From the NCBI GenBank assembly GCA_944392105.1, contig CALXVM010000007.1, positions 3,624-67,623 of the forward strand: a stretch of DNA of 64,000 nt, in the 5' to 3' direction. The first letter of the stretch is position 1. The number at the start of each line of letters is the position of its first letter. The position numbers and the translations under genes were made by a program. Of this stretch, positions 37,819 through 51,271 are shown one piece after another. Source of the DNA: an uncultured Clostridia bacterium (GTDB lineage Bacteria; Bacillota; Clostridia; TANB77; CAG-508). The notes beneath the pieces were generated by a model that saw only the letters and a list, made by a program, of their open reading frames with translations, searched no databases and was not told the origin of the DNA.

Positions 37819-37939
37819 CTTCCTATTGCTTCGTTAATTTCTTGTTTTTTGTTTTAAAGTAATATGCAAATAATTAATATTACTTTTAATTGATTTTTAT
37901 TAGTTTAATATATAAAATTAGTATGTTTTTTTATTCTAA

Positions 37940-38551
37940 CTAATTTTCTTCTAATTGCTTTATATATCTATAAATTTCGCCCCAGTTATATAATACTTTT
38001 AAATATTCATTTTCTTCCAAGTCGAAAGATGGTGCATCTTTTAAATATATTGTATGTATGTGGTCCCTAGCTAATTTTTTACAATTTTTATTTGAGTCAT
38101 CTATCATTAAGTCTATCTTCTCTTGTTTACAAATTTCTTCTTTATTTTCAGTTCCCCAATAATATTTTTCGAATATATCAAGGTCGTTATCTTTAAGTCT
38201 TTGGATTGTTATAGGTATCAAATCCTTATTTAGCTTTCCTCTTGCAGTTATAACTATTAGAGTATGCCCTTCTTCTTTTAGCAAAGGTATAATATCCTTT
38301 GCTCCTGGCATAAAATTAGATACTTCTGTAATTTTTCTATGATATTTTTTTACAAAGCCATCTGTTTCTTCTTCACTCCATGAATATCTATCTTGAAATT
38401 TTATTTCTCTGTTATTTCTTATGCTGTTTTTCTTTAAATCCTGAATATCATATAGCTCTGAGTATATTCTATAAAGTTTTTCTGAGTCAAATATTACTCC
38501 ATCTAAATCAATTCCAATTCTCATGCACAAATTTGTATGATGTTTTACCAT
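37940..38551 (-). CDS. HAD-superfamily 5'(3')-deoxyribonucleotidase-like (NT5C family)
   Basis: IGIDLDGVIFD (DxDxV/T nucleophile motif). ~200 aa. MIDDS near the C-terminal third. Confidence 0.6.
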   Translation of the reverse strand: MVKHHTNLCMRIGIDLDGVIFDSEKLYRIYSELYDIQDLKKNSIRNNREIKFQDRYSWSEEETDGFVKKYHRKITEVSNFMPGAKDIIPLLKEEGHTLIVITARGKLNKDLIPITIQRLKDNDLDIFEKYYWGTENKEEICKQEKIDLMIDDSNKNCKKLARDHIHTIYLKDAPSFDLEENEYLKVLYNWGEIYRYIKQLEEN

Positions 38552-38741
38552 ACTCTCCTTTCCTCGTTTTTTATATATTCTATCTTAGATATGTCATTTT
38601 TTCAATTATTTTTGGTTTTTATTAATAATTTTATAAGATTTTGATATCTATAATTAGTTGCCTCATTTTTTATTATTTGTAGCCGATTAATTTCGGTCCG
38701 TTCCGCTATAGCGGATATTTTTTGTGCGTTTTAAAATTATT

Positions 38742-38768
38742 CTACAACAAAACCCGCCGGAGCGGGTT
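38742..38768 (-). terminator. terminator after cas2
   Basis: AACCCGC-TCCG-GCGGGTT hairpin followed by TTTGTTGT on the minus strand. Confidence 0.7.
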
Positions 38769-38793
38769 AATGTGATTGTAATAGACGAAATTA

Positions 38794-39078
38794 CTATAAA
38801 AAGTTGTCTGTTTTATCCTCTTCAATTTTTCCTAAAAATTTTTTATCTAGCCATTTTTGACTTCTACTTTTAAATACAATCACTGAATCTTTTTCTTTTC
38901 TAATATGTCTTTTTAGCTCTTTCTCTAATTTTAGCATTGCTGAATCTGAAATATCACCTTCAAATACTGAATTTTGTATATGTACCAAATATTTTTTACA
39001 AGTTTTGAATACTTTTCTTAAAACTTTCTGTCCTCCATTTTCTTCTAAATTTATATCATAAACTAAAATTATATACAT
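38794..39078 (-). CDS. cas2: CRISPR-associated endoribonuclease Cas2
   Basis: 94 aa. MYIILVYDI start typical of Cas2. Directly follows cas1. Confidence 0.9.
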   Translation of the reverse strand: MYIILVYDINLEENGGQKVLRKVFKTCKKYLVHIQNSVFEGDISDSAMLKLEKELKRHIRKEKDSVIVFKSRSQKWLDKKFLGKIEEDKTDNFL

Positions 39079-39079
39079 A

Positions 39080-40072
39080 CTACCACCACATTTTAAATCC
39101 TTCGTATTCTTGTCCTTCTATAAAATGCTTTATTAATTTATATATCTCTAACCTTATTAAATATTCATAACTTACTTCTCTATTTAGCTTTTTGTGTTTA
39201 ATTGTCGTTTGAAGTCTTAAGTCCATTTCTCTTGTAATTTCTTTTCTTTTTTCTTCTTTTATGTATAAAAAATTTAAACCTTTTTCAAAATCATTTTCTG
39301 TTATTTGTTTTTTATTTAACATTGAAAATATAAGTCTATCTGCTATAATTGGCTTAAAAATCTCTGCTATATCTAAACAAAGCGAAAATCTTCTCTCTGA
39401 TGGCTCATGCAAATAGCTAATTGTTGGGTTTAATTGTGTTTTATATATTTCACTTAATACCCTTGTATATACTAATGTGTTTGTATACGAAATTAACGAA
39501 TTTATAGCATTATCCGGAGGATTTTTGACTCGTTTTTCAAATTCTATTTCTTGACTAATAATATTTTTCCATGAACTATAATATGTTTTTCTTATGTTGC
39601 CTTCTATTCCCATTAGTTCTTGTACATCTTTACACAAATCTATTTGTTTTCTTAAATGTTCTATTTCATTTATGTATTCTTTTAATTCTTTTCCTCTATT
39701 ATTATAGTAATTTAAGTTTCTATAAATATTGTATGATGCACTTTTTATAAATTCTTTGGCTATGTTTAGCCTTTTATTCTTATCTATATAATGTTTTACT
39801 TGTTCTATTAGGAGTTTTCCAGATACCAAATTTTCTTTTGGATAGTATGTCCCAGTATAAAAACCATAATGATTAAAAAAGTGTATAGATATACCATATT
39901 GAGATAGAAAATTAAGTAAATTAGTATTCAAATCAAATTCGGTCATAATATAAATGTCGTCTGTATGTTCAACTGGAATTGATTTTTTACTTCCATCTTT
40001 ATAAATAATTTCTAATGAATTGTCTTTTCTCTGTAGTCTTCCGTTTCTATATAAATAGTACGATTTTTTCAT
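39080..40072 (-). CDS. cas1: CRISPR-associated endonuclease Cas1
   Basis: 330 aa. GIEGNIRKTYY..NPPDNAINSLISY..HEPSERRFSLCLDIAEIFKP matches Cas1 core motifs. Confidence 0.9.
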   Translation of the reverse strand: MKKSYYLYRNGRLQRKDNSLEIIYKDGSKKSIPVEHTDDIYIMTEFDLNTNLLNFLSQYGISIHFFNHYGFYTGTYYPKENLVSGKLLIEQVKHYIDKNKRLNIAKEFIKSASYNIYRNLNYYNNRGKELKEYINEIEHLRKQIDLCKDVQELMGIEGNIRKTYYSSWKNIISQEIEFEKRVKNPPDNAINSLISYTNTLVYTRVLSEIYKTQLNPTISYLHEPSERRFSLCLDIAEIFKPIIADRLIFSMLNKKQITENDFEKGLNFLYIKEEKRKEITREMDLRLQTTIKHKKLNREVSYEYLIRLEIYKLIKHFIEGQEYEGFKMWW

Positions 40073-40158
40073 ATCTGAAGCTCATTCCTTTCTTCTATTG
40101 GCTATATGCATGTTTTTATAAGATTTTAATTGTCTCATTTTTCGCTTCTGTTTCCCTT

Positions 40159-40659
40159 TTATATATAACATAAGTCATAATATGCACATTTTTTGCATTT
40201 TTTATCTTGCGCTACATCTATTGGCCCATTTGAGTTTATAATTTTTCTAATGTTCATTATAATATTTTTTAGAGCTTGTCTGTCTTCATTATCTAGTGTT
40301 ATATCTTTTGTTTCTTTTATTAAAGGAAAATCTATTTTTGCTTTAACATTTTCTACACCTTTTTGTTCTAAGTAATACATGTAGTACTTTACTTGCCAAA
40401 TTGATGCTTCTTCAATTGATTTTGTTTTCTTTACTTCATGTAGAATTGCACTATTTTTGATAAAATCAATATTTATAGTATTGTCTATTAAAATATGTTT
40501 TTCTTGATTTTCATAACTCGTTTCGTCTATTATTTTACCAATTTCAACTAGTTCGCTATTCTGTTCCATTTGTATTTGATTTGCAAAATACCATAATTTC
40601 TTTTTGCATACGAAGTAATAATAAACCATTATTCCACTTATCTCTTTCATTTTTATCAC
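40159..40659 (-). CDS. cas4: CRISPR-associated exonuclease Cas4
   Basis: 166 aa. N-terminal Cys (FVCKKK) plus C-terminal CKKCAYYDLC Fe-S cysteines. Confidence 0.85.
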   Translation of the reverse strand: MIKMKEISGIMVYYYFVCKKKLWYFANQIQMEQNSELVEIGKIIDETSYENQEKHILIDNTINIDFIKNSAILHEVKKTKSIEEASIWQVKYYMYYLEQKGVENVKAKIDFPLIKETKDITLDNEDRQALKNIIMNIRKIINSNGPIDVAQDKKCKKCAYYDLCYI

Positions 40660-40806
40660 TTCCTTTTTTGTTTTTATTACGTTATTATTTATCTATATTT
40701 AATGTTCTATTATAATTATATTAAGCTTTAGTAAACTCATTGATTATCAATTAGTATATTTTGATTAATATATATCATTTTCCTGCTTAATTTCCTGTAC
40801 TTTAAA

Positions 40807-42967
40807 GTTTACATTCTATTATATTTAGATTACTACTTCGATTTTCAGCCTCTTTTACTGCTTCATCAGTGTTTATATTCTACTATATTTAAATTACTAC
40901 TTGACCAAATGACAAAGTTCCTCTGACTGTGAAATCCCAATTTATATTCTACTATATTTAAATTACTACCAAGACTATCACGTATATCACTAATCTGTCC
41001 ACTATAATATTTATATTCTACTATATTTAAATTACTACTGAAATATATTACTAAAGATTGTGTAAAAAATAGTAAATTTATATTCTACTATATTTAAATT
41101 ACTACCTTCATCTTCTTTTTGTCTTGCTGGGTTTGCTATTAATATATTTATATTCTACTATATTTAAATTACTACCATATCTATATAATAATTTATGTGA
41201 AAGCATAATCATTTATATTCTACTATATTTAAATTACTACTTAAGAAAGTCGGGACGGTCTAAAATATCACGTGAGACATTTATATTCTACTATATTTAA
41301 ATTACTACTTATTTTGTAGTATCCTTTTTCTGTCATTACGTGATTTATATTCTACTATATTTAAATTACTACTATGTTCTAGTCCATTCTACCCAATAAA
41401 AGAATTCTACATTTATATTCTACTATATTTAAATTACTACGCAACTCTATTTAATATATCTGCTTGATTTTCATCATTTATATTCTACTATATTTAAATT
41501 ACTACAGACTATAACGAATGTGATATACGAATAAAAATAGAATTTATATTCTACTATATTTAAATTACTACTTTAAAACTAAAGTAGATTATACTTTTGA
41601 TGAAGAATTTATATTCTACTATATTTAAATTACTACCCCCACATTAGTCCTGTAGAATTACTATATTCTACATTTATATTCTACTATATTTAAATTACTA
41701 CTTTTGGAGGTAATGTAGTGATAAGAGAGCAAAAAGAAGTATTTATATTCTACTATATTTAAATTACTACTAATTCCAAGCTGTATGATATTACAGTTTA
41801 GCACTATTTATATTCTACTATATTTAAATTACTACGAGCCAGAAGATGACGAAAAAGTCAATCTTCAAAAAATTTATATTCTACTATATTTAAATTACTA
41901 CGAAAAGTATTGATATAAGAAAAAGCAATACCAACATCATTTATATTCTACTATATTTAAATTACTACTTTCTTCTCTAATATCTTCTTCTGTCCTATTC
42001 TTCATATTTATATTCTACTATATTTAAATTACTACCAAGAAGATATGTGGAAATACTCTTCATATTGGTACAATTTATATTCTACTATATTTAAATTACT
42101 ACAAGTATAAACATTTCTAAAAAATCATTTATTTTTTCATTTATATTCTACTATATTTAAATTACTACATAGATAATCCTCATATATTTACAATGAAAGA
42201 TATATGAGATTTATATTCTACTATATTTAAATTACTACTTTTGAAACTTCCTTGATTACTCATTATTCTAAATGATTTATATTCTACTATATTTAAATTA
42301 CTACAAAGTATTGATATAAGAGAAAGCTACGCCGAACATCATTTATATTCTACTATATTTAAATTACTACAAAGAAAATAATCGAGAAAATGAAACTATG
42401 AATTTATTTATATTCTACTATATTTAAATTACTACCTAGTCCTCCTTAAGTTTTAGTCTTCTTCCACACATATTTATATTCTACTATATTTAAATTACTA
42501 CATAATACCCATTTAAATTTTCTTGTCTTTTTATCAAGATTTATATTCTACTATATTTAAATTACTACGTCCATTTGAGCAAGCAACAGTCTACACGCCT
42601 ACAGCATTTATATTCTACTATATTTAAATTACTACACAGAATTATCAGTAACTACAATATTCGCATTGGTATTTATATTCTACTATATTTAAATTACTAC
42701 TCAAATCCATTCGCGGTTGGGTCATCTGTAACATTTGATTTATATTCTACTATATTTAAATTACTACAAGTGATTTTACTTTAACCATTTTATTTGTTTC
42801 TTTATTTATATTCTACTATATTTAAATTACTACATAATTGTATGGATAGCAATAGCACTTGTTATTTTTATTTATATTCTACTATATTTAAATTACTACA
42901 TATCTTCTTTGTTTGCGTAATATTTCTTAATAATTAAATTTATATTCTACTATATTTAAATTACTAC
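40807..42967 (-). CRISPR. CRISPR array, 33 repeats / 32 spacers (34-40 nt)
   Basis: 30-nt repeat ATTTATATTCTACTATATTTAAATTACTAC (plus strand), i.e. GTAGTAATTTAAATATAGTAGAATATAAAT in the cas direction. The terminal repeat at 40807-40836 has 4 mismatches, so the leader is at the 42968 side. Confidence 0.97.
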
Positions 42968-43147
42968 AGGTTCATATATACATGGCTATATTCTAGTGTT
43001 TATCAGCATATATCTGTCGACCTATTCATTTTTTACTAAATTTTCAAATAAAAATTTAGTATATTTATTAAAAATGCTTATATTTAAGCCTTTTCTTTAT
43101 CTGTCGATGCAACGTATATTTTTGCTTATTAGTGGTCGACAGATATT
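42968..43147 (-). promoter_or_regulatory. CRISPR leader
   Basis: 180-bp AT-rich spacer between the cas3 stop and the first perfect repeat. Contains three copies of TATCTGTCGA(C/T) and a TAGAAT -10-like box. Confidence 0.6.
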
Positions 43148-45337
43148 TTATAAGAACCTACTATCCAAATCATATTCTTCATCATTTTCTAATAATAGTC
43201 CTATTTTATTATCATATTTTAAATTAAGTACCTGTATTCCTTCTATCTCTATGCTATTTACAGTATATTCGCGCACTTTTCTCATCTGTCCACTACTTAT
43301 AGTTGTTGTTAACTTATTCATTTCTCTTTTAAGCCTTCTTCTCTTTTCTCTATCTTTTTCGTTCTTATACTCATCAAATAGTTTTATATTTTCATCATAA
43401 ATTGATTTCGGAATTACTGTATAACTTTCTATTTTTCTTAGCAATTGTTGTGCTTCTTTCTTATCTACATCATAGTCTATAATATTGTCTAAAACTTTTA
43501 TTCCTTCTTCAAAGTTTCTTAAAAAGTCACTATCCTTTAATTTTTCTTTGGAGTATAGTTTATCTACTAGCATCATCTTTTGTTCTTCTTTTAGTAGTTT
43601 CTCATCAAATTTTTCTAAAAGTTCTTTACTTATTTCATATATTTTCTTATCATAGACACTACTAATTCCACTATTTTTCTCTGTAAATATATATATATTT
43701 GGCTCATTCATGTCAAATTTTCTTTTTCTATAGCATCTTCCCAATCTTTGAAATAAGCTGTCTAATGTTGACATTTCTGTATATAAATAATCAAAATCTA
43801 TATCTAATGATGCTTCTACAAGTTGTGTTGTAATCCAGACTCCGTTTTCTTTTTTATTATCTGAAAATTCCTTTATTTCTTTTTCTAACTTTGCTCTATC
43901 TTTTGCAATAAATCTAGCATGTAGTAAACGCACATTTTTATTGTTGTATTCTAGTATTTTTTTATATATTTCAATAGCTTTGTTTACAGTATTGGCTATA
44001 ACTAAAACTTTTTTATTTTTTGCTTTTTCACATATTGCCTCACAATTATCTATTATATCTGATTTTTCTAGTTTTATTTTATGTCTTTCTAATTTACTTG
44101 GAACTTCTTTATATTCAAAATCTATCTTCATTTCTTCTAATTTGTCTTTATATATTCTTGGCAGAGTTGCTGTCATAATCATAAATCTTCCGCCAATGTT
44201 ACTTATCATCTGTAAGCCTTTTAAAATGATAGCTGTTATTTCTGGGTCGTATGCTTGTATTTCATCTATAATTACTTTTGAATATGCTAGAGTAGAATAT
44301 ATTCTCTCATATCCTTTATATTTAAATACAAATGGGAATATTTGATCTACTGTACATGTGGTAATTCTATATGATAAATTTTTAGCTTGTTCCCACTCTG
44401 CATTGGAAATTCCAAATTCTGTTTCCGCTTCTTCTAAATAATCTAATGCTGCAGAATGAAGCAGTCCTACACTTTTATAATTTATAATGTCTTTAATTCT
44501 ATCAAATATTGCATTAATGCTTATTCTTAAAGGTAGTGTAAAAAATGCTTTGTCTCCTTGTGCCCACATTAAAGCAGCTTCTGTTTTTCCTAATCCTGTT
44601 GAACCAACTGCAACTACATTGTTTTCTTGATTATTTTTTGCAAATATTTGTAACTCGTTTTCTTTAAAATTATGCTTAATGAAAAAGCTTTCTATATAAT
44701 CTGATATTTTTTCATCACATGTATCTTCTACTTGAATGTGTGCAGAAGCACTATAATCTAGTCGATGTAAAAACCCTTTTAATAAGACATAATCTACGTA
44801 TAATTTGTGTAAAGAATTAATTCGCTTTCCGTCTCCTACTAAACTTAAATATATAGTGTTTGGAGATTTATTAAGCTCTATTTCTAACTCTTCTGATGCA
44901 CTTGCTATCTTTGGCATGAGGTCATTTTTTATTATTTTATTAACCAAGTCTCTATCATCATTTTTTTGTTTTCTCTCATGATGATAATATATTGCCTGAA
45001 TTAATAACTTTTCCACTTGTTCTGTTAGATTTAAGTCATCTATTGGGATAAGAGCTGGAGAAAGTTGTTCGTGTTTTATATCATTATAATTAAATTCTGT
45101 TGGTATTTCTTTCTTACCTATTTTATTTAAAATTAGGTTTTGAAATGGTGTATATATTTTGCCTATGTCATGGTATTTACAAGCTAATTCTAAGATTCTC
45201 CAAAACTCTTCTCCTCTTAAACTTGTTGTTCTTGCTACCTGTTTAGCACTAATTTTCTTTAAATACTTTATTTGTTTTACAAGCTCGTCTGTGTGTTCTT
45301 TTAAGGTCTCTTGTGGTTCTGATTTTGCATAAAACAT
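43148..45337 (-). CDS. cas3: CRISPR-associated helicase/nuclease Cas3 (HD + DExH)
   Basis: HD region (KYHDIGK), helicase motif I GSTGLGKTEAA, motif II IIDEIQ. 729 aa. Confidence 0.9.
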   Translation of the reverse strand: MFYAKSEPQETLKEHTDELVKQIKYLKKISAKQVARTTSLRGEEFWRILELACKYHDIGKIYTPFQNLILNKIGKKEIPTEFNYNDIKHEQLSPALIPIDDLNLTEQVEKLLIQAIYYHHERKQKNDDRDLVNKIIKNDLMPKIASASEELEIELNKSPNTIYLSLVGDGKRINSLHKLYVDYVLLKGFLHRLDYSASAHIQVEDTCDEKISDYIESFFIKHNFKENELQIFAKNNQENNVVAVGSTGLGKTEAALMWAQGDKAFFTLPLRISINAIFDRIKDIINYKSVGLLHSAALDYLEEAETEFGISNAEWEQAKNLSYRITTCTVDQIFPFVFKYKGYERIYSTLAYSKVIIDEIQAYDPEITAIILKGLQMISNIGGRFMIMTATLPRIYKDKLEEMKIDFEYKEVPSKLERHKIKLEKSDIIDNCEAICEKAKNKKVLVIANTVNKAIEIYKKILEYNNKNVRLLHARFIAKDRAKLEKEIKEFSDNKKENGVWITTQLVEASLDIDFDYLYTEMSTLDSLFQRLGRCYRKRKFDMNEPNIYIFTEKNSGISSVYDKKIYEISKELLEKFDEKLLKEEQKMMLVDKLYSKEKLKDSDFLRNFEEGIKVLDNIIDYDVDKKEAQQLLRKIESYTVIPKSIYDENIKLFDEYKNEKDREKRRRLKREMNKLTTTISSGQMRKVREYTVNSIEIEGIQVLNLKYDNKIGLLLENDEEYDLDSRFL

Positions 45338-45347
45338 ACATTACTCC

Positions 45348-45998
45348 TTATTTATAGAATATTATGTAGTCTCCATCTTCATCTTTCAAAACATTTTTTA
45401 ATAATATATTGCTATCTTCTTCTATATATTTTACCTTTACTTTGTCATATTTTCTTAAATTATCTGGAGTTATATGATATACTGTATTAAGATTATAATT
45501 AATTCCGGGCATATCTTCTCCTAGTTTTTCTAATGGGACATATGCATTTCTATTGGCTTGGTCTCTTCTTACTTGTTCTATATTTTGTACATATTTTATT
45601 CCATCTATTCTAACCATATCTTCATTTCTTCCTAATGAAAATGTTTCTTTTCCATTTACAATGTTTTGATAAATTTTGTCTATTACCTCGTCTTCTGCTT
45701 GTACATGAATTACTAAGTTTATGTTTAAAAGTTGATGGACATTTCTTGGCATTGATGTTACTTTATCTTTTCCTTTATACATTCTTAGATTTTGATAGTT
45801 AGTAAAAATGCTTTCATATTCTCCTTGAACAGATATATTCATATCAAAGTATTCACCTGGTTTTGCTTGTAATATTTTATGTAACATACCAATTATAGTA
45901 GAATATGGGGGTAATGGATATGTTTCTGCTACTTTTAAAGCCAATGGTTTCTTATAACATGCTGTTTCTTGAAAAAGATTTAGTTTTAATATTTTCAT
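45348..45998 (-). CDS. cas5: Cas5 (type I-B)
   Basis: 216 aa. ETACYKKPLALKVAETYPLPPYSTIIGMLHKIL is the typical Cas5 N-terminus. Confidence 0.85.
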   Translation of the reverse strand: MKILKLNLFQETACYKKPLALKVAETYPLPPYSTIIGMLHKILQAKPGEYFDMNISVQGEYESIFTNYQNLRMYKGKDKVTSMPRNVHQLLNINLVIHVQAEDEVIDKIYQNIVNGKETFSLGRNEDMVRIDGIKYVQNIEQVRRDQANRNAYVPLEKLGEDMPGINYNLNTVYHITPDNLRKYDKVKVKYIEEDSNILLKNVLKDEDGDYIIFYK

Positions 45999-46033
45999 AA
46001 TTGGTCGCCATCCTTTCTATGTAGTAGCTTAAT

Positions 46034-46948
46034 TTATTTTGCATAATATTCCTTTACCTCATTTTCTATTTCATCAAAGAACTTTTGTATACTAAGCATT
46101 TTATCTCCAAATAGTTCTTGTAATTCTTCCTCATTTTTAAATTCATTTGGAACGATTCCTGCAAAAGTATTTTCTTTTACACTATTTTCTCCTATTTTAA
46201 GCTCCATTGCAGAGTCTAAAATTTTTGTATCTATTTTAAAACCTTCACCTTTTGTCTCTAACTTTATTCTACCTAAGAAAAATGGAGTATTGATGTTATA
46301 TATTCCGCCTACTATAAATAATGGGCTTAGGTTTTCTTCTCTACCTCTAATATCTCTATTTAGTACTTTTATGATTTCTAATAATTGTAGTACTCTATTT
46401 GTTTTTTCTTCTTGGCTAAGTTCTATATTTCCATCTTTTCCAACTCTTGCTAATTCTACTGTTACTGTATATGTATAATAACTTAAATGTTGTTCTACAT
46501 TTGCTAAATTAGGAAATTCATCTATTCTATCTGCTAATCCTTTATTAGTTAAAAAGTCCATATCGCTTTTATATTCTTCTAATGAAAGCGCATGACTTAG
46601 TCTAACAGTTGCACTTCTTGTTTCAGAACCTCCATCCTCATTTTCTGCAGATTTTTTAGATGTTTTCATATAACCAAATAAATCCATCTCTTGAGAATCT
46701 TTAATATTTAGTTCATCTTTAAATTGTATAGTACCTTTTGATTTGTCTACAACTTCTAAATTCCAGTTATATAGTTTATTTCCAATTCTTGCAATATCAT
46801 ATCTTAATGCTTGTCTTGAAGCAAATGTATATACATTTCCATTACCTCTTGCTAACTTTTTTAACTCTGATATGTTTCCAATTCCTTCTCCATAATTTAA
46901 GCTTTGTGCTTTAAATATTATTGTTAATGTTAATCCTTTACTATTCAT
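46034..46948 (-). CDS. cas7: Cas7 (type I-B, Cst2/DevR-like)
   Basis: 304 aa. AQSLNYGEGIGNISELKK..YTFASRQALRYDI matches the Cas7 backbone family. Confidence 0.85.
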   Translation of the reverse strand: MNSKGLTLTIIFKAQSLNYGEGIGNISELKKLARGNGNVYTFASRQALRYDIARIGNKLYNWNLEVVDKSKGTIQFKDELNIKDSQEMDLFGYMKTSKKSAENEDGGSETRSATVRLSHALSLEEYKSDMDFLTNKGLADRIDEFPNLANVEQHLSYYTYTVTVELARVGKDGNIELSQEEKTNRVLQLLEIIKVLNRDIRGREENLSPLFIVGGIYNINTPFFLGRIKLETKGEGFKIDTKILDSAMELKIGENSVKENTFAGIVPNEFKNEEELQELFGDKMLSIQKFFDEIENEVKEYYAK

Positions 46949-47173
46949 AATTATTTCCTTATATAATATAATAAAACTTAAATTTTAATATATAACTTAC
47001 CATTTTGGTTTTATCTCTTTATTACCGATTATGTTTAAATAGGAAACTTATATTATATTTTATTATATTATACTTTCCTTTCTCCATTAATTATTTTATT
47101 CCTAAGAATCTTGGTTTAATGGTACCATTAAAATTTGCAAATAAGTTTAAATATATATGTATTTGTACATAAT

Positions 47174-49030
47174 TTATTCTCCAAGTGCTTCGTCAACATT
47201 TGTTTCTTTCTTTTCATATTTATTTGATGCTAACCCTGATAAAAAAGTATGTCCAATTGTTGCAAAATCAAATTGCTCTTCTTTCATTACATCTAAAAAT
47301 ATTGGTGATATATCTTTTCCAAGAGCCATATGCAACCTAATTACATTATCCATAAATTCTTTTTTGTTTCCAGTTTTTACACAATTTAACATTTTATAAA
47401 CATATCCGTCTAGTTTATTATCTGTTCCTTTTCTCTTTAGCTCTTCGTGAATTTCTGTACCAATTGAGTATAATGCCATTAATTTTTTATTTTTCTTCTC
47501 CATTTCACTCATATCTTTTTCTCCTTTCTGGATTGATTTTATTTGCATTCTTGTTTTTGATGCTAAAAATGTTGCATATCCTCCATAATTATTTTTTATA
47601 ACATCTCTAAGCTTGTCATTTACAATATATTTTGTATCTTTGTTTTTCATAATTTTGTCAACCATTTGTATCTTTAATCTATAGTCTTTTATTTTCATTA
47701 AACTTTTGTCTGCATAATCCTTAAAAAATACTGCAACTGGTCTTGTTATATGGAAATATTCAAGTCTGCTATATGCTAAATATTCCGCTTCAATTTCTAC
47801 TACAAATATATTTTCTAATTGACATTTACTTATGTCTTTTTCTTGTTCTACGATATCTATTAATAGGTCTGCATAAGGACTTTCGATATACCTATCCTTT
47901 CTAGATTTACTTGCAAAATTATTATTTGTCCTTAATAAGTTTTCAATGTCAGTGTCGTAATTTACAAAACTTAAGATATCTTTTTCCTCATATTTTTGAC
48001 TATTTTTTGTAAGTTTTGTGATTGTCGTCAATCCCATTGGAATACAAAACATAATTAATTTGCATATATCACAAATTGGATAATTTACTTTTTGATTCCA
48101 AAAGAAATTTTTCATGTTATCACTACTAACAGCCATTGCTAAAAAGTTGCTTTCTGAATAATTACTTGTAATACAATGTTCATTTCCACATAAATAGCAT
48201 ATTTTAAAGACATTTTTTTCTATATATTCTTTTATTTCATTTGCTTGCTTACCTTTTTCTATGTATTTTTTGTTAATATCTGTATAAATTTTCAGCATTT
48301 CTTTAGTTATTAGCTCTTGATTTAACTTTTTTATATGTTCTTTTAGGTTCTCTAAATTATATTTTTCATCTATAAAGTCTTTTAAATATCCTGTTTCTAC
48401 AATATTGCTTACATAATCTTTATACATTAAGTTCATTTGTTCTTCATAAGAAGCACTATTTTTTACTACATTTAGAAATGAAGGTTGTCCGAAATATTTA
48501 TTACTTAATATGCTTTTAAATAAATTTGCAGTTAGCTTTTTATTAATGCTTTCTTTGTATAAGTATTGTCTTACTCGGTTAAAGATGTTTTCTAACTCCT
48601 CTAGTTGTTCTTTTTCTTTAATTGAATCTATTTCATTATATTCTTCTTGAATCTCATTTGCGGTTTCTTGGTCGAATTTCTTTATTTTATCTAATTGTTT
48701 TTTTATATTGTCTTTAATGTACTTTTTTTCTCTTTTTAATTTTTCTTTTGCATCATTTAATTCTTTTTTGTCTTCGCTTTCTATTTCTAAATATTGCTTT
48801 ATTCTATCAAATGACTCATCCATTCTTTTATTCATTGTCTTAGCTATATCATATGTTTCAAACAAATATTGGAAATAGTATTTGTGAAATTCTTTTAAAA
48901 TTTCTGTATCAAATTCTACGTAATTATCTTGAACTACTAATGCATCTTTTTGATACTTTTCCGTAATTCTTAAAAAGCCAATTAAACCTGCATTGTAAGA
49001 CCAGTCATTTAATTCTAGTTTTGCTTTCAT
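47174..49030 (-). CDS. cas8b: Cas8b/Cst1 large subunit (CXXC-CXXC type)
   Basis: 618 aa. N-terminal DWSYNAGLIGFLRI. CYLCG and CDIC motifs characteristic of Cst1. Confidence 0.8.
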   Translation of the reverse strand: MKAKLELNDWSYNAGLIGFLRITEKYQKDALVVQDNYVEFDTEILKEFHKYYFQYLFETYDIAKTMNKRMDESFDRIKQYLEIESEDKKELNDAKEKLKREKKYIKDNIKKQLDKIKKFDQETANEIQEEYNEIDSIKEKEQLEELENIFNRVRQYLYKESINKKLTANLFKSILSNKYFGQPSFLNVVKNSASYEEQMNLMYKDYVSNIVETGYLKDFIDEKYNLENLKEHIKKLNQELITKEMLKIYTDINKKYIEKGKQANEIKEYIEKNVFKICYLCGNEHCITSNYSESNFLAMAVSSDNMKNFFWNQKVNYPICDICKLIMFCIPMGLTTITKLTKNSQKYEEKDILSFVNYDTDIENLLRTNNNFASKSRKDRYIESPYADLLIDIVEQEKDISKCQLENIFVVEIEAEYLAYSRLEYFHITRPVAVFFKDYADKSLMKIKDYRLKIQMVDKIMKNKDTKYIVNDKLRDVIKNNYGGYATFLASKTRMQIKSIQKGEKDMSEMEKKNKKLMALYSIGTEIHEELKRKGTDNKLDGYVYKMLNCVKTGNKKEFMDNVIRLHMALGKDISPIFLDVMKEEQFDFATIGHTFLSGLASNKYEKKETNVDEALGE

Positions 49031-49276
49031 CTTTTATTATCACTCCTTTCTCAATTTATTATTTTAATGTTTCTGCAAACAAACGATTTTGAGATGTCTG
49101 CTGAGACTCCTTCCCTAATTTTACTATTTTAATGTTTGTATAAAATCTTACATTATCTGCTACTTTTTTGGTACTACTTTCTTCTTTATGTAGGTAAATT
49201 CAATGCTGAGTCTTCGTTTTATAAACTTGCTTTTTATCTGCACTTAAAATGTACTGTATATTTTGAAATTATCTAC

Positions 49277-49993
49277 TTAGATAGAAAACATTCCAAATCC
49301 GCTACTTCTTTTGCTTCCAATTCCTGCTTTATATAGATAGTCTAATAATTCTGGATTTCCTTTTAATTTATATACCCCTAAGGAAGTTTCTATTTGTTTT
49401 TCGTAGAATTTAATAACTGCTTTTTTAGCATTTACTGCCTCTATTGAAAAAGTATCTACTAATTTTTCTGGAATATCTGTATTTTTTATTTCTTCTTTTA
49501 TGTTAATTTTTAGCATTTCTTCAAATTTTTCATGTTTAAATGAATAATAGTAATCTTTTTTCGTTTCATTATTATGCTCTCTTACTACCAGTGGAGACAT
49601 GAATTTTACTACAATTTCATCTGTTTTAATTTGCTTTTCAGGAACAATAGAAATTTTTTGTAAAGTCATATAATTTCGATTTAATGGGAAAGCTTTGTGA
49701 AGCTGATGATTAAAACTATTGTAGATATTAATTGCAATATTATAGTCTTGAATTGAAAAGTTTAGCTCTACTTTTTTGTCTTCTAACAAAATAAAATCTT
49801 CTTCGAATTTTGGATTCTTAAAAAATACCGCAAAAGTGTAAGGTTTCATAATAGGGTCTTTTGCATGATATAGCTTGTTAAATTCTTCTTCGCTATAGTT
49901 TTCTAAAGACATTTTTATAAAACTCATTATGCTTTTGCGATATTGTATGGGGAATTTTTCATTTGCTAGTGTAAATAGAAATTTAAATCTCAT
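49277..49993 (-). CDS. cas6: Cas6 endoribonuclease
   Basis: 238 aa. C-terminal glycine-rich loop GIGSKRSSGFGMF. First gene of the cas operon. Confidence 0.85.
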   Translation of the reverse strand: MRFKFLFTLANEKFPIQYRKSIMSFIKMSLENYSEEEFNKLYHAKDPIMKPYTFAVFFKNPKFEEDFILLEDKKVELNFSIQDYNIAINIYNSFNHQLHKAFPLNRNYMTLQKISIVPEKQIKTDEIVVKFMSPLVVREHNNETKKDYYYSFKHEKFEEMLKINIKEEIKNTDIPEKLVDTFSIEAVNAKKAVIKFYEKQIETSLGVYKLKGNPELLDYLYKAGIGSKRSSGFGMFSI

Positions 49994-50269
49994 TTTTTCA
50001 CCTTCTTTTTTTATTGATTTTATTATTGTATCATATTAATGTTAAAAAGTTTGTCGTAATTTGTCGTAAAACATTATTTTTTGTATATACTTATTACGTA
50101 TATATTTATCATGTATTCAACTCTTTGTCAATTCATATATTTTTTTATATTTACACTATTTGTTCCTATACTTTTATGATATAATTGATTTGTTTGTATA
50201 TATTTATATTATATAAGGAAAAATAAGGTTGAAAAAGAATTGTACCTAAAGAAAGGAATACGATTAATT

Positions 50270-50731
50270 ATGGATAATTTTATGAAAATGGCTAAAGAAG
50301 CCGCTGAAAACGGAATGAACTTAAACGAAGGAGGTCCATTTGGTGCTGTTATAACGGATAAAAATGGAAATGTAATTTCTGTAGGAAATAATCAAGTGTT
50401 AAAAAATAATGATCCAACTGCACATGCAGAAGTCATGGCTATACGCAAAGCTTGTGAAAAACTTAATACTTATGATTTATCTAATTGTATTTTGTATACA
50501 TCTTGCGAGCCTTGTCCAATGTGTTTATCTGCTGCAATATGGGCAAACATTAAAGATGTTTATTATGCCTGCACTCGCGAAGATGCTGCTAATATTGGCT
50601 TTAGAGATGATTTTATTTATGAATATTTAGAAGGGAAAAATAAGGATGCTATAACTTTGCATCAAATTGATAGAGATAAGTGTATAGAAGTTTTTGAGAA
50701 ATATAAGAAAGAAAATAAAACGATTTATTAA
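50270..50731 (+). CDS. guaD: guanine deaminase (CDA-fold, GuaD-like)
   Basis: GGPFGAVI..DPTAHAEVMAIRKAC..CILYTSCEPCPMCLSAI, very close in pattern to B. subtilis GuaD. Start moved to ATG 50270. Confidence 0.8.
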   Translation: MDNFMKMAKEAAENGMNLNEGGPFGAVITDKNGNVISVGNNQVLKNNDPTAHAEVMAIRKACEKLNTYDLSNCILYTSCEPCPMCLSAAIWANIKDVYYACTREDAANIGFRDDFIYEYLEGKNKDAITLHQIDRDKCIEVFEKYKKENKTIY

Positions 50732-50805
50732 GAAAAATAATTTTAACATAATGGAATTTAAATATTAGTTGTACTTTATCTTTGCTTTCAAATGCATTTG
50801 ATTAA

Positions 50806-50855
50806 TAATCTAAATATATTAGAATATACATTTATATTCTAATATATTTAGATTA
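50806..50855. repeat. orphan inverted pair of CRISPR-repeat-like sequences (23-bp perfect hairpin)
   Basis: TAATCTAAATATATTAGAATATA-CATT-TATATTCTAATATATTTAGATTA. Positions 50830-50855 match the first 26 nt of the CRISPR repeat at 24 positions. Confidence 0.75.
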
Positions 50856-50911
50856 GGGATTAGTTTAATTTGGTTGATACAATAAATATTTTATATTCCA
50901 ATATTTTTATA

Positions 50912-51271
50912 TTATTTATTAAAATATTCTTTCCATTCTTGCTCCTTAAAACCTACTAATATTTTATCGTCACTTACAATTAAAGGTCTTTTTATTAACA
51001 TTCCATCACTTGCAAGTAATTTTATTTTCTCTTCTTCTGTCATTTCTGGTAATTTTTCCTTTAAATTTAGTGCTTTATATTTTAATCCACTAGTATTAAA
51101 CCAACTTTTTATATCTTTTTCACTTAATGGTATCCATTGCTTTAACTCCTCCGCTGTTGGCGTTTCTTCTATAATATGTCTATCTTCAAATTGTATATTG
51201 TTAATTTCTAACCATTTTTTAGCTTTTTGACATGTTGAACATTTTGGATATTCAATAAATATAATTTTCAT
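50912..51271 (-). CDS. ArsC/Spx/YffB-family thioredoxin-fold protein
   Basis: 119 aa. N-terminal CSTC (CxxC) and LIKRPLIV motif of the ArsC/Spx family. Confidence 0.7.
   Translation of the reverse strand: MKIIFIEYPKCSTCQKAKKWLEINNIQFEDRHIIEETPTAEELKQWIPLSEKDIKSWFNTSGLKYKALNLKEKLPEMTEEEKIKLLASDGMLIKRPLIVSDDKILVGFKEQEWKEYFNK

Follow-up and report, generated by a model that had tools for sequence, protein, structure and literature searches.

A perfect CRISPR-repeat hairpin beside a type I-B locus of an uncultured Clostridia bacterium: the probable collision point of two convergent, decayed mini-arrays

The feature described here lies in a stretch of 64,000 nucleotides from an uncultured Clostridia bacterium (contig CALXVM010000007.1, positions 3,624 to 67,623), which we call the window, and it occupies the space between two convergent genes. 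The first of these (50240..50731, plus strand, with a probable ATG at 50270) encodes a protein of the CMP/dCMP deaminase fold carrying the Pfam domain dCMP_cyt_deam_1. It scores 74.6 bits against the TadA model, under the cut-off of 150, and judging by its sequence the name guaD is plausible but unproven. The second gene (50912..51271, minus strand) encodes an Spx/MgsR-family protein of the ArsC fold, which matches TIGR01617 at 117 bits, over the cut-off of 75. On the other side of the deaminase gene, a type I-B (Cst1/Cst2/Cas5t) cassette takes up 38794..49993 on the minus strand and comprises cas6, cas8b, cas7, cas5, cas3, the CRISPR array, cas4, cas1 and cas2, as annotated from NCBIfam models and open reading frames. 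The cas6 gene (49277-49993, minus strand) is followed by cas8b1/cst1, cas7/cst2, cas5b and cas3, which is the composition of type I-B. The array (40807-42967) holds 33 repeats with the plus-strand unit ATTTATATTCTACTATATTTAAATTACTAC. The minus-strand form of this repeat is GTAGTAATTTAAATATAGTAGAATATAAAT, from which we conclude that the array has the same reading direction as the cas genes, namely that of the minus strand. Degenerate copies of the repeat sit at the low-coordinate end of the array.

Between the deaminase and Spx-family genes, at a distance of 813 nt from the cas6 start, we find a perfect 23-bp stem. Its arms, 50806-50828 (TAATCTAAATATATTAGAATATA) and 50833-50855 (TATATTCTAATATATTTAGATTA), are exact reverse complements separated by the loop CATT (50829-50832), in which two inverted copies of the CRISPR repeat share 2 nt. 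The right arm together with three loop bases (50830-50855) agrees with positions 1-26 of the array repeat at 24 of 26 positions; the minus strand of 50806-50831 has one mismatch more. A search with the arm pattern, allowing 3 mismatches, returned the array copies and the two hairpin sites only, and 0.00 matches are expected by chance according to 100 dinucleotide shuffles. The G of the arm variant TTTAGATTA, an A-to-G change, is also found in the degenerate terminal repeat of the array at 40807. The preliminary description of this site, made from the sequence alone, had reported the hairpin with its 4-nt loop, its position between the convergent genes near cas6, the 24/26 repeat match, the shared A-to-G variant and the retention of the last 11 nt of the repeat (see the minus-strand copy below), and our analysis bears out all of these points.

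The bases by which the arms depart from the array repeat have a simple counterpart elsewhere. The live repeat of the sister lineage G003 (GTTATAATCTAAATATATTAGAATTTAAAT), which agrees with the arm at 25 of 26 positions, has the two derived bases, C in TAATCT and T in ATATTAG, as its normal state, and one of the two also occurs in the oldest repeat of the window's own array. On this comparison the arms are an old repeat variant with no special adaptation. The spacer region of 228 nt is identical in 10 independent metagenome assemblies, one of which (L192) has an A>G substitution in the loop, the sole substitution inside the hairpin across these assemblies. The recovery of the hairpin in 10 independent assemblies means that it is not an assembly artefact. 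A dispersed repeat or MITE was considered as well and rejected, as the arm is a single occurrence in the 1.5-Mb genome. Long AT-rich perfect hairpins between genes are frequent in this genome, with 59 of at least 16 bp, many of which are A/T-tract bidirectional terminators.

In order to define the layout around the hairpin, we scanned the region with the full 30-nt repeat and obtained four copies, two on each strand. On the plus strand, psiR1(+) (50734..50763, AAAATAATTTTAACATAATGGAATTTAAAT) is a degenerate repeat with 8 mismatches that starts 2 nt past the deaminase stop codon; it is followed by psiS(+), a 38-nt spacer-like stretch (50764..50801), and by psiR2(+) (50802..50831, TTAATAATCTAAATATATTAGAATATACAT), a copy with 5 mismatches of which 50806-50828 form the left hairpin arm. 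On the minus strand, psiRa(-) (50889..50918) has 8 mismatches and overlaps the stop codon of the Spx/ArsC-family gene (50912-50914); it is followed by the 29-nt spacer-like stretch psiS(-) (50860..50888, minus-strand sequence TATTTATTGTATCAACCAAATTAAACTAA) and by psiRb(-) (50830..50859), which reads TCCCTAATCTAAATATATTAGAATATAAAT, has 6 mismatches, is identical to the repeat over its last 11 nt, provides the right arm (50833-50855) and agrees with the repeat of the relative G003 at 25 of 26 positions. With the array and this region set aside, 22 sites at 8 or fewer mismatches exist genome-wide in 3.0 million positions on both strands, so that about 0.004 are expected in these 250 bp. The label of an orphan pair, used in the preliminary description, has therefore to be given up, since two further degenerate copies flank the pair at array-like spacing.

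Both halves of the locus have the appearance of short arrays. Repeats in direct orientation enclose spacer-like sequence on both strands, with a period of 68 nt on the plus side, within the range of the live array (64-70 nt), and of 59 nt on the minus side. The outer copies psiR1 and psiRa carry 8 mismatches and the inner copies psiR2 and psiRb carry 5-6, while the parts corresponding to the 5' handle are conserved at 7 of 8 positions in psiR1 and psiRa. The first copies adjoin the stop codons, leaving no space for a leader. Repeat units at an array-like period, the lack of a leader and decay towards the outside are what relic arrays show. We also considered a single large inverted duplication that included the spacers, which is unsupported: the outer repeats align, and the pseudo-spacers align no better than shuffles do (2174 of 5000 shuffles score equally or higher). 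No further repeat relics at 9 or fewer mismatches were found in the cas operon gaps 49031-49276 and 46949-47173.

We gathered deaminase neighborhoods from species-representative genomes, metagenome contigs and exact-protein look-ups. Relatives with the same convergent relics at the same site are human-gut Clostridia of the Clostridium sp. CAG:273 group; the window's genome belongs to the genus that includes Clostridium sp. CAG:273, whose genome G018 is FR901520.1. A plus-sense repeat copy directly past the deaminase stop codon is present in every lineage with a close cas6 homolog (G001, G012 and G018; 87-89% identity), and the same copy is present in L107, L108 and L110-112, all of which lack the cassette. 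Genomes G001 and G012 contain 3-4 plus-sense relic repeats after guaD, with pseudo-spacers common to both species. The first 8 nt of psiS(+) (ATTAGTTG) and its 3' part are common to spacer 3 of these relic arrays, and the plus-side unit of the window is homologous to their repeat 3-spacer 3-repeat 4 segment; psiR2 is therefore a genuine old array member and not a fresh copy of the other hairpin arm. The G001 and G012 relic arrays agree at 29-56 of every 60 alignment columns, against 50-58 in their flanks. They diverge no more slowly than their flanks, as expected of neutral-like evolution, and relics persist in strains without cas genes.

The minus side can be traced in the same manner, and the center of the locus varies between lineages. 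Orthologs of psiRb(-) and psiRa(-) occur in L107, in L108 and in the CAG:273 type, and psiS(-) is a shortened form of a stretch of about 45 nt found in L108 and the CAG:273 type. In the CAG:273 type the order is psiR1(+), 12 nt (ATTATTAATAAT), psiRb(-), about 45 nt and psiRa(-), and the center forms a palindrome of about 20-22 bp. The 20 N in the G018 sequence mark a scaffold gap, and four complete contigs confirm that it conceals nothing. L108, from another species, keeps psiR1(+), psiRb(-) and psiRa(-), and has at its center a GC-rich terminator of canonical form, CCCGCTTCGGCGGG with six T after it. In the distant relative L030 the deaminase and ArsC-fold genes are convergent, 10 nt apart and accompanied by zero repeat copies; the gene pair was thus probably already adjacent, and the arrays would have been inserted between pre-existing neighbors. 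Searched against 400 family genomes, the head-on junction pattern (ATAKTAGAATNTA, a gap of 0-40 nt, TANATTCTAMTAT) was matched only in G000 and G018, and a control pattern gave zero matches. The head-on junction is one locus in one small clade and no recurrent design. As to conservation of the hairpin at related loci, which the preliminary description had proposed as a check, convergent relics are kept in relatives, and the perfect form is limited to one of the three alleles of the species.

The presence of the relics does not follow that of the cas genes. In L107, L108 and L110-112 the sequence corresponding to window position ~38732 is joined straight to that at ~50250, and everything from cas2 to cas6 (38794-49993) is missing; upstream of the deaminase these contigs are collinear with window positions ~34830-38732. 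The missing cassette, next to guaD, measures 11.5 kb. The relics are retained in these contigs and in L195, which are all without the cassette, and the CAG:273-type palindrome is essentially the same in cassette-bearing (L114, G018) and cassette-less (L110-112) contigs. The 5' ends of the pseudo-spacers vary between lineages. The conservation together with the cas locus that would be expected of a regulatory mini-array was thus not found.

Within the species we compared contigs that encode an identical Spx-family or deaminase protein, counting contigs retrieved twice as one sample, and distinguished three alleles. Allele A, represented by the window and 10 independent assemblies (11 of 19 samples), has the perfect hairpin, and the cassette is present in 11/11. 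Allele B (L195, L205 and L206) has a different plus-side pseudo-spacer and a different palindrome, GTAGTAATCTAAATATATTTATATTACTAC, which consists of the fused 5' halves of one plus-strand and one minus-strand repeat; past it come a third minus-strand repeat (psiRc), a 36-nt pseudo-spacer and psiRb. The cassette is present in L205 and L206 and absent in L195. Allele C (L107/L187, L189, L193, L194 and L203, the cassette being present in L203 only) has an intergenic region of 620 nt with an insert of 0.45 kb. Its order is three plus-sense copies, a terminator, a hydrophobic ORF of 50 codons on the minus strand with its own predicted promoter, psiRc, psiRb and psiRa. The ORF is absent from the window's genome. 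We rejected a CreTA-like reading of it, because the cassette is missing in 4 of 5 allele-C strains, which is a misfit for a Cascade-repressed toxin.

The perfect hairpin is confined to one of these three alleles. At the junction, alleles B and C have a hairpin of 8 bp only (-6 to -9 kcal/mol); a history of purely two independent arrays leaves this mini-palindrome unexplained. The terminator element of allele C (L107) is inverted in L108, where 28 of 29 nt are identical once reverse-complemented, and therefore the segment between the inverted repeats has probably been inverted at least once and deleted to varying extents. The palindrome of allele A would then be, on the evidence of these sequences, the state in which nothing remains between the inner repeats. 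Strains with allele A are cas-positive in 11/11 samples, against 3/8 for alleles B and C together (Fisher estimate ~0.005). This association may reflect linkage, but it also fits a cas-dependent role.

Such variation raises the question of whether the locus acts at the level of DNA, with the inverted repeats bounding a recombination hot spot or an invertible cassette of which the palindrome is the "empty" state. Such a cassette would swap, invert or delete cargo, for example the hydrophobic ORF of allele C. The three alleles of one species differ exactly between the outer repeat copies, allele B has a second palindrome built from fused repeat 5' halves, the terminator is inverted between L107 and L108, and the cargo ORF of allele C comes with its own predicted promoter and terminator, all of which would fit a cassette. 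However, the neighborhood has no recombinase, and neither this genome nor the other loci contain the cargo elsewhere. The history as we read it contains only one inversion and a few deletions, for which ordinary recombination between 30-bp inverted repeats suffices, and we regard a dedicated DNA-level element as unlikely.

A second possibility is that the units work as a regulatory mini-array of the CreR/CreA type, in which a Cas6-processed, crRNA-like RNA guides Cascade to the cas6 promoter or another promoter and the hairpin is the terminator. The direct psiR-psiS-psiR units 0.8 kb upstream of cas6 resemble type I-B mini-arrays (10.1101/2023.03.03.530964), and the 5'-handle parts of psiR1 and psiRa are largely conserved. 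Moreover, psiS(-) has an 11-nt run in common with 50023-50033, between the predicted -35 and -10 elements of cas6, which 32 of 3000 shuffles equal. This is the sole cas-promoter match of psiS(-), and for psiS(+) we found no target. In order to judge the match, we derived the PAM by comparing the 32 array spacers, concatenated, with 150 family genomes. Two spacers gave matches with a single mismatch each, spacer 21 in G141 behind CCT and spacer 23 in G143 behind CCA, and the weaker match of spacer 32 is likewise behind CCT; the PAM is therefore 5'-CCW. The whole array gave no match in phage records, and three spacer cores gave 0 matches in IMG/VR.

Measured against this PAM, the candidate site in the cas6 promoter does not have the properties of a target. 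It is flanked by ATT, and the match begins at spacer position 4, with positions 2 and 3 of the seed mismatched. Among CCN-flanked sites upstream of cas6, cas8b, cas7, cas4 and the leader, none exceeds 7 of 10 seed positions for either pseudo-spacer. Two CCA-flanked seed matches exist genome-wide, a number expected by chance, and both lie inside ORFs (507 and 458 codons). Additionally, psiS(-) owes its 5' end to a deletion that is restricted to this species, and its CAG:273 counterpart has no match. In the CreR/CreA class, the PAM-proximal end of the spacer agrees over at least about 10 consecutive nucleotides with a PAM-flanked site of a cas or toxin promoter; the two pseudo-spacers have no such site, and the CreR/CreA-type reading fails because neither pseudo-spacer has a PAM-flanked, seed-anchored cas-promoter target. 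The units are also kept in strains without the cassette. The CreA-type regulator suggested in the preliminary description consequently loses its footing, also considering that the perfect hairpin belongs to one of three alleles and the junction to 2 of 400 genomes, and we consider a guide function very unlikely.

Predicted RNA folds of the hairpin are strong on both strands (-27.4 kcal/mol for plus, -24.2 kcal/mol for minus), and the whole 201-nt spacer region has a z score of -6 to -7 relative to shuffles, because the two arrays are mutually complementary. The stem-loop is located directly downstream of both genes, 75 nt past the deaminase stop codon and 57 nt past the Spx stop codon, and no other terminator-like sites were found between the two genes. 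The tails that follow the stem are GGGAUUAGUUUAAUUU (plus) and UUAAUCAAAUGCAUUU (minus). There is no U-rich tract on either strand, a consensus scan gives no call, and the hairpin is therefore not a canonical intrinsic terminator. An earlier suggestion that it doubles as a bidirectional terminator stands as regards the strong stem past both genes, but not as regards the U-tract. Canonical terminators are in use elsewhere in this genome. Each of three lineages has a strong hairpin at this site, and the sequences that form it differ in part: a stem of 23 bp in the window, one of about 20-22 bp in the CAG:273 type, and the GC-rich terminator in L108. Selection for a structure at transcript ends would account for this, and so would the tendency of inverted repeats to collapse into palindromes. 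Neither the hairpin region nor the end of the array belongs to an Rfam family; a sub-threshold match to MicX, inside the deaminase gene, is all that Rfam returned.

The same folding properties bear on the headline of the preliminary description, according to which the hairpin is a potential Cas6 decoy or anti-repeat. The transcript of such a sponge would titrate Cas6 or pair with the repeats of pre-crRNA, thereby modulating crRNA maturation. The antisense arm is complementary to the array repeats at 24 of 26 positions, the sense arm still has, on the minus strand, the final 11 nt of the repeat, and all allele-A samples are cas-positive. However, the arm-arm duplex, at -24 to -27 kcal/mol, should outcompete both Cas6 binding and pairing in trans. 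A perfect 23-bp duplex would hide the inner repeats from Cas6 and has sufficient length to serve as an RNase III substrate, which speaks against both a decoy and an anti-repeat acting in trans. Alleles B and C, the cas-positive strains L203, L205 and L206 among them, lack the perfect form, the junction is restricted to one locus in 2 of 400 family genomes, and no promoter of its own scores above chance. Since the relics also persist without the cassette, the decoy proposal is hard to sustain, and we hold it to be highly improbable.

We therefore favor, with a probability of roughly 70%, the interpretation that two convergent CRISPR mini-arrays, both decayed, collide at the hairpin, which would be a fossil with at most a passive role at transcript ends. 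The preliminary description had listed "the fossil of an old array end" as one of its options, and it is this option that the four-copy layout and the relics in relatives and cassette-less strains favor. A plus-strand mini-array (psiR1-38 nt-psiR2) would run from the deaminase stop codon and a minus-strand one (psiRa-29 nt-psiRb) from the stop codon of the Spx/ArsC-family gene, the two meeting where psiR2 and psiRb abut with a 2-nt overlap. The palindrome is perfect because psiR2 and psiRb are oppositely oriented copies of one old repeat variant. The arrays themselves would be what is left, without leaders, of an older set of type I-B arrays, and their insertion would have separated a gene pair that is 10 nt apart in a distant relative. 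Recombination and deletion between the inverted copies would then have repeatedly reshaped the center, with a deletion in this genome, an inversion in L108 and a 0.45-kb insert in allele C as the probable outcomes, while arm-to-arm conversion may have preserved the perfect palindrome.

We infer that the hairpin has no CRISPR function today and that it escapes Cas6 processing, while a passive role is plausible. Read-through transcripts of both convergent genes would fold into the stem of -24 to -27 kcal/mol, which could stall or stabilize transcript 3' ends or be cut by RNase III, and which would hide psiR2 and psiRb from Cas6. The readings as a regulatory guide, a decoy or an anti-repeat either lack support or meet with contrary evidence, and are improbable. 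It is quite unlikely, too, that the palindrome serves either as an intramolecular repeat:anti-repeat lock or as the empty state of a recombination cassette. In the lock, deaminase or spx transcripts would read into the relic repeats, and an RNase III cut or a Cas6 block would stop useless or self-directed relic guides from loading Cascade. If either were true, CRISPR repeats arranged as inverted pairs would have a function in their own right in systems other than those with tracrRNA.

Comparison with known systems places the locus among array debris. Degenerate and orphan CRISPR arrays are debris left after cas loss or rearrangement, such as the Listeria RliB array. Like these, the locus has leaderless, decayed repeats at the array period without adjacent cas genes in part of the strains, and pseudo-spacers common to related strains and species; unlike these, two relic arrays face each other here and their inner repeats form a perfect palindrome. 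A limited literature search, which was not aimed at this feature, turned up no published description of a head-on palindromic junction. The anti-repeat of tracrRNA in types II and V likewise is a repeat-complementary sequence and can form a duplex longer than 20 bp, of the kind that RNase III typically cuts. In type I-B, however, maturation is carried out by Cas6 and needs no anti-repeat. The locus has no type II or V effector, only type I-B proteins (Cas6, Cas8b1/Cst1, Cas7/Cst2, Cas5b and Cas3), and the duplex is intramolecular.

The closest regulatory parallels are mini-arrays and crRNA-like regulators. Shmakov et al. 2023 reported bacterial type I-B mini-arrays upstream of cas6, for example in Clostridium perfringens and Fusobacterium, which target the cas6 promoter next to a PAM (10.1101/2023.03.03.530964). 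The present locus resembles them in having degenerate repeats around spacer-like sequence, next to the cas6 end of a type I-B locus in a member of the Clostridia. It differs in that it has no PAM-flanked, seed-anchored target in the cas6 promoter, in that a housekeeping gene lies between the copies and cas6, and in that two opposed units collide and are kept without the cas cassette. Liu et al. 2023 defined CreR by at least 11-15 nt of PAM-proximal complementarity to a cas promoter (10.1101/2023.03.10.532045). The CreA/CreR units of Li et al. 2021 (cited in 10.1101/2023.03.10.532045) have the same psiR-psiS-psiR order and a first repeat whose 5' handle is mostly kept; their spacers reportedly agree with a cas or toxin promoter over 11-15 or more successive PAM-proximal positions, and their second repeat remains free. 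In the window no such target is found, and the second repeat is locked in the 23-bp duplex. Racrs, or solitary repeat units (Camara-Wilpert et al. 2023, PMC10651486), are likewise repeat mimics outside an array, but they are single mimics encoded in viruses and other mobile elements. The hairpin is instead chromosomal, a single genome copy at the deaminase/Spx site, outside mobile elements, syntenic across species and paired with its own complement.

Array debris and standalone repeat copies near cas6 are known, and the head-on palindromic junction with its allelic series is an unusual variant of them. Repeat-like sequences next to cas6 in type I-B loci are now often taken for regulatory guide RNAs. 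The locus described here indicates that array debris can mimic regulatory guide loci, even with a perfect repeat/anti-repeat hairpin, and that the two can be separated by deriving the PAM from real protospacers, by looking for a seed-anchored target and by examining persistence without cas genes. If it were true that the hairpin gates Cas6 or marks a recombination cassette, this would be a new use of CRISPR repeats, which the present evidence makes unlikely. The several alleles within one uncultured gut species suggest that CRISPR repeats in inverted orientation can be a driving force of local deletions and inversions and of the formation of palindromes.

The entire type I-B cassette of the window, which runs from cas2 to cas6 with the array mid-way (38733-50249), is a present/absent polymorphism between close relatives. 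Its left junction lies immediately past a hairpin, TCCGCTATAGCGGA (38699-38715), which is retained in strains without the cassette. In L108, a locus from another species, the cassette site is instead occupied by an ORF of the minus strand, which is unrelated to the cassette and contains a long charged repeat. In the divergent promoter region of cas6 and the deaminase gene, the unit TTTGTCGTAA is tandemly duplicated (two copies, 50051-50071), and one related copy of this unit, AATTAGT(C/T)GTAAAATG, is found in the related genomes G001 and G012. Another tandem repeat, with 5.5 copies of a 40-bp unit (35210-35428), is located upstream of a gene for a 563-codon membrane protein; its alignment with L107, a contig from the same species carrying allele C of the deaminase/Spx intergenic region, suggests that copy number is strain-dependent.

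Allele C encodes a 50-codon hydrophobic ORF (L107:4640-4960, VSKNFYYVWSIFEVFLVFNHLFNQEWLMAMIFVPFAIYFIRLYLKHAND), which is limited to allele-C contigs and has no counterpart in the window. The ORF has a predicted promoter (TTGAGT-17-TGCTATAAT) and GGAGG as its ribosome-binding site, ends in a GC-rich terminator, and is flanked by the inverted, degenerate CRISPR-repeat relics of this intergenic region. The same terminator is present in L108, in the opposite orientation. The adjacent deaminase gene aligns in two frames in the reference scaffold of Clostridium sp. CAG:273 (L009:9260-9750), a pattern indicative of either a frameshift or a fault in the assembly; the gene is intact in other contigs of the CAG:273 type.

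A solitary mini-array is encoded on the minus strand of contig C2 of the window's own genome (C2:13531-13630, corresponding to L207:3532-3631), distant from the cas locus. A 193-codon ORF precedes it, with 8 nt between the ORF's stop codon and the start of the mini-array. Its first repeat is near-perfect (2 mismatches), its second is degenerate, and the spacer between them is 35 nt long (GAAGGTACAGGTTATAGAACAAAGACTAGATTTTC). A search of the genome for a PAM-flanked target of the mini-array's spacer found none. The same genome carries two families of dispersed hairpins, which are perfect, long (25-34 bp) and GC-containing, with the cores GAAATTAGGGACAGGTCATTT... and AGAAATTGGGACCAGATCTAAATTTC... 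The first group of sites comprises C13:3838-3915, C3:53635-53693 and C17:21202-21260, and the second C23:19755-21, C1:91363-91429 and C1:142183-142243. Both families look like REP- or MITE-type elements.

Two protospacers, both located in different genera of the same family, gave the PAM as 5'-CCW. Within the cassette's array (40807-42967), spacers 10 and 16 (42305-42340 and 41902-41938) are near-identical versions of a single target, GATGTT...TCTTATATCAATACTTT, which suggests that the array took up spacers more than once from variants of the same invader.
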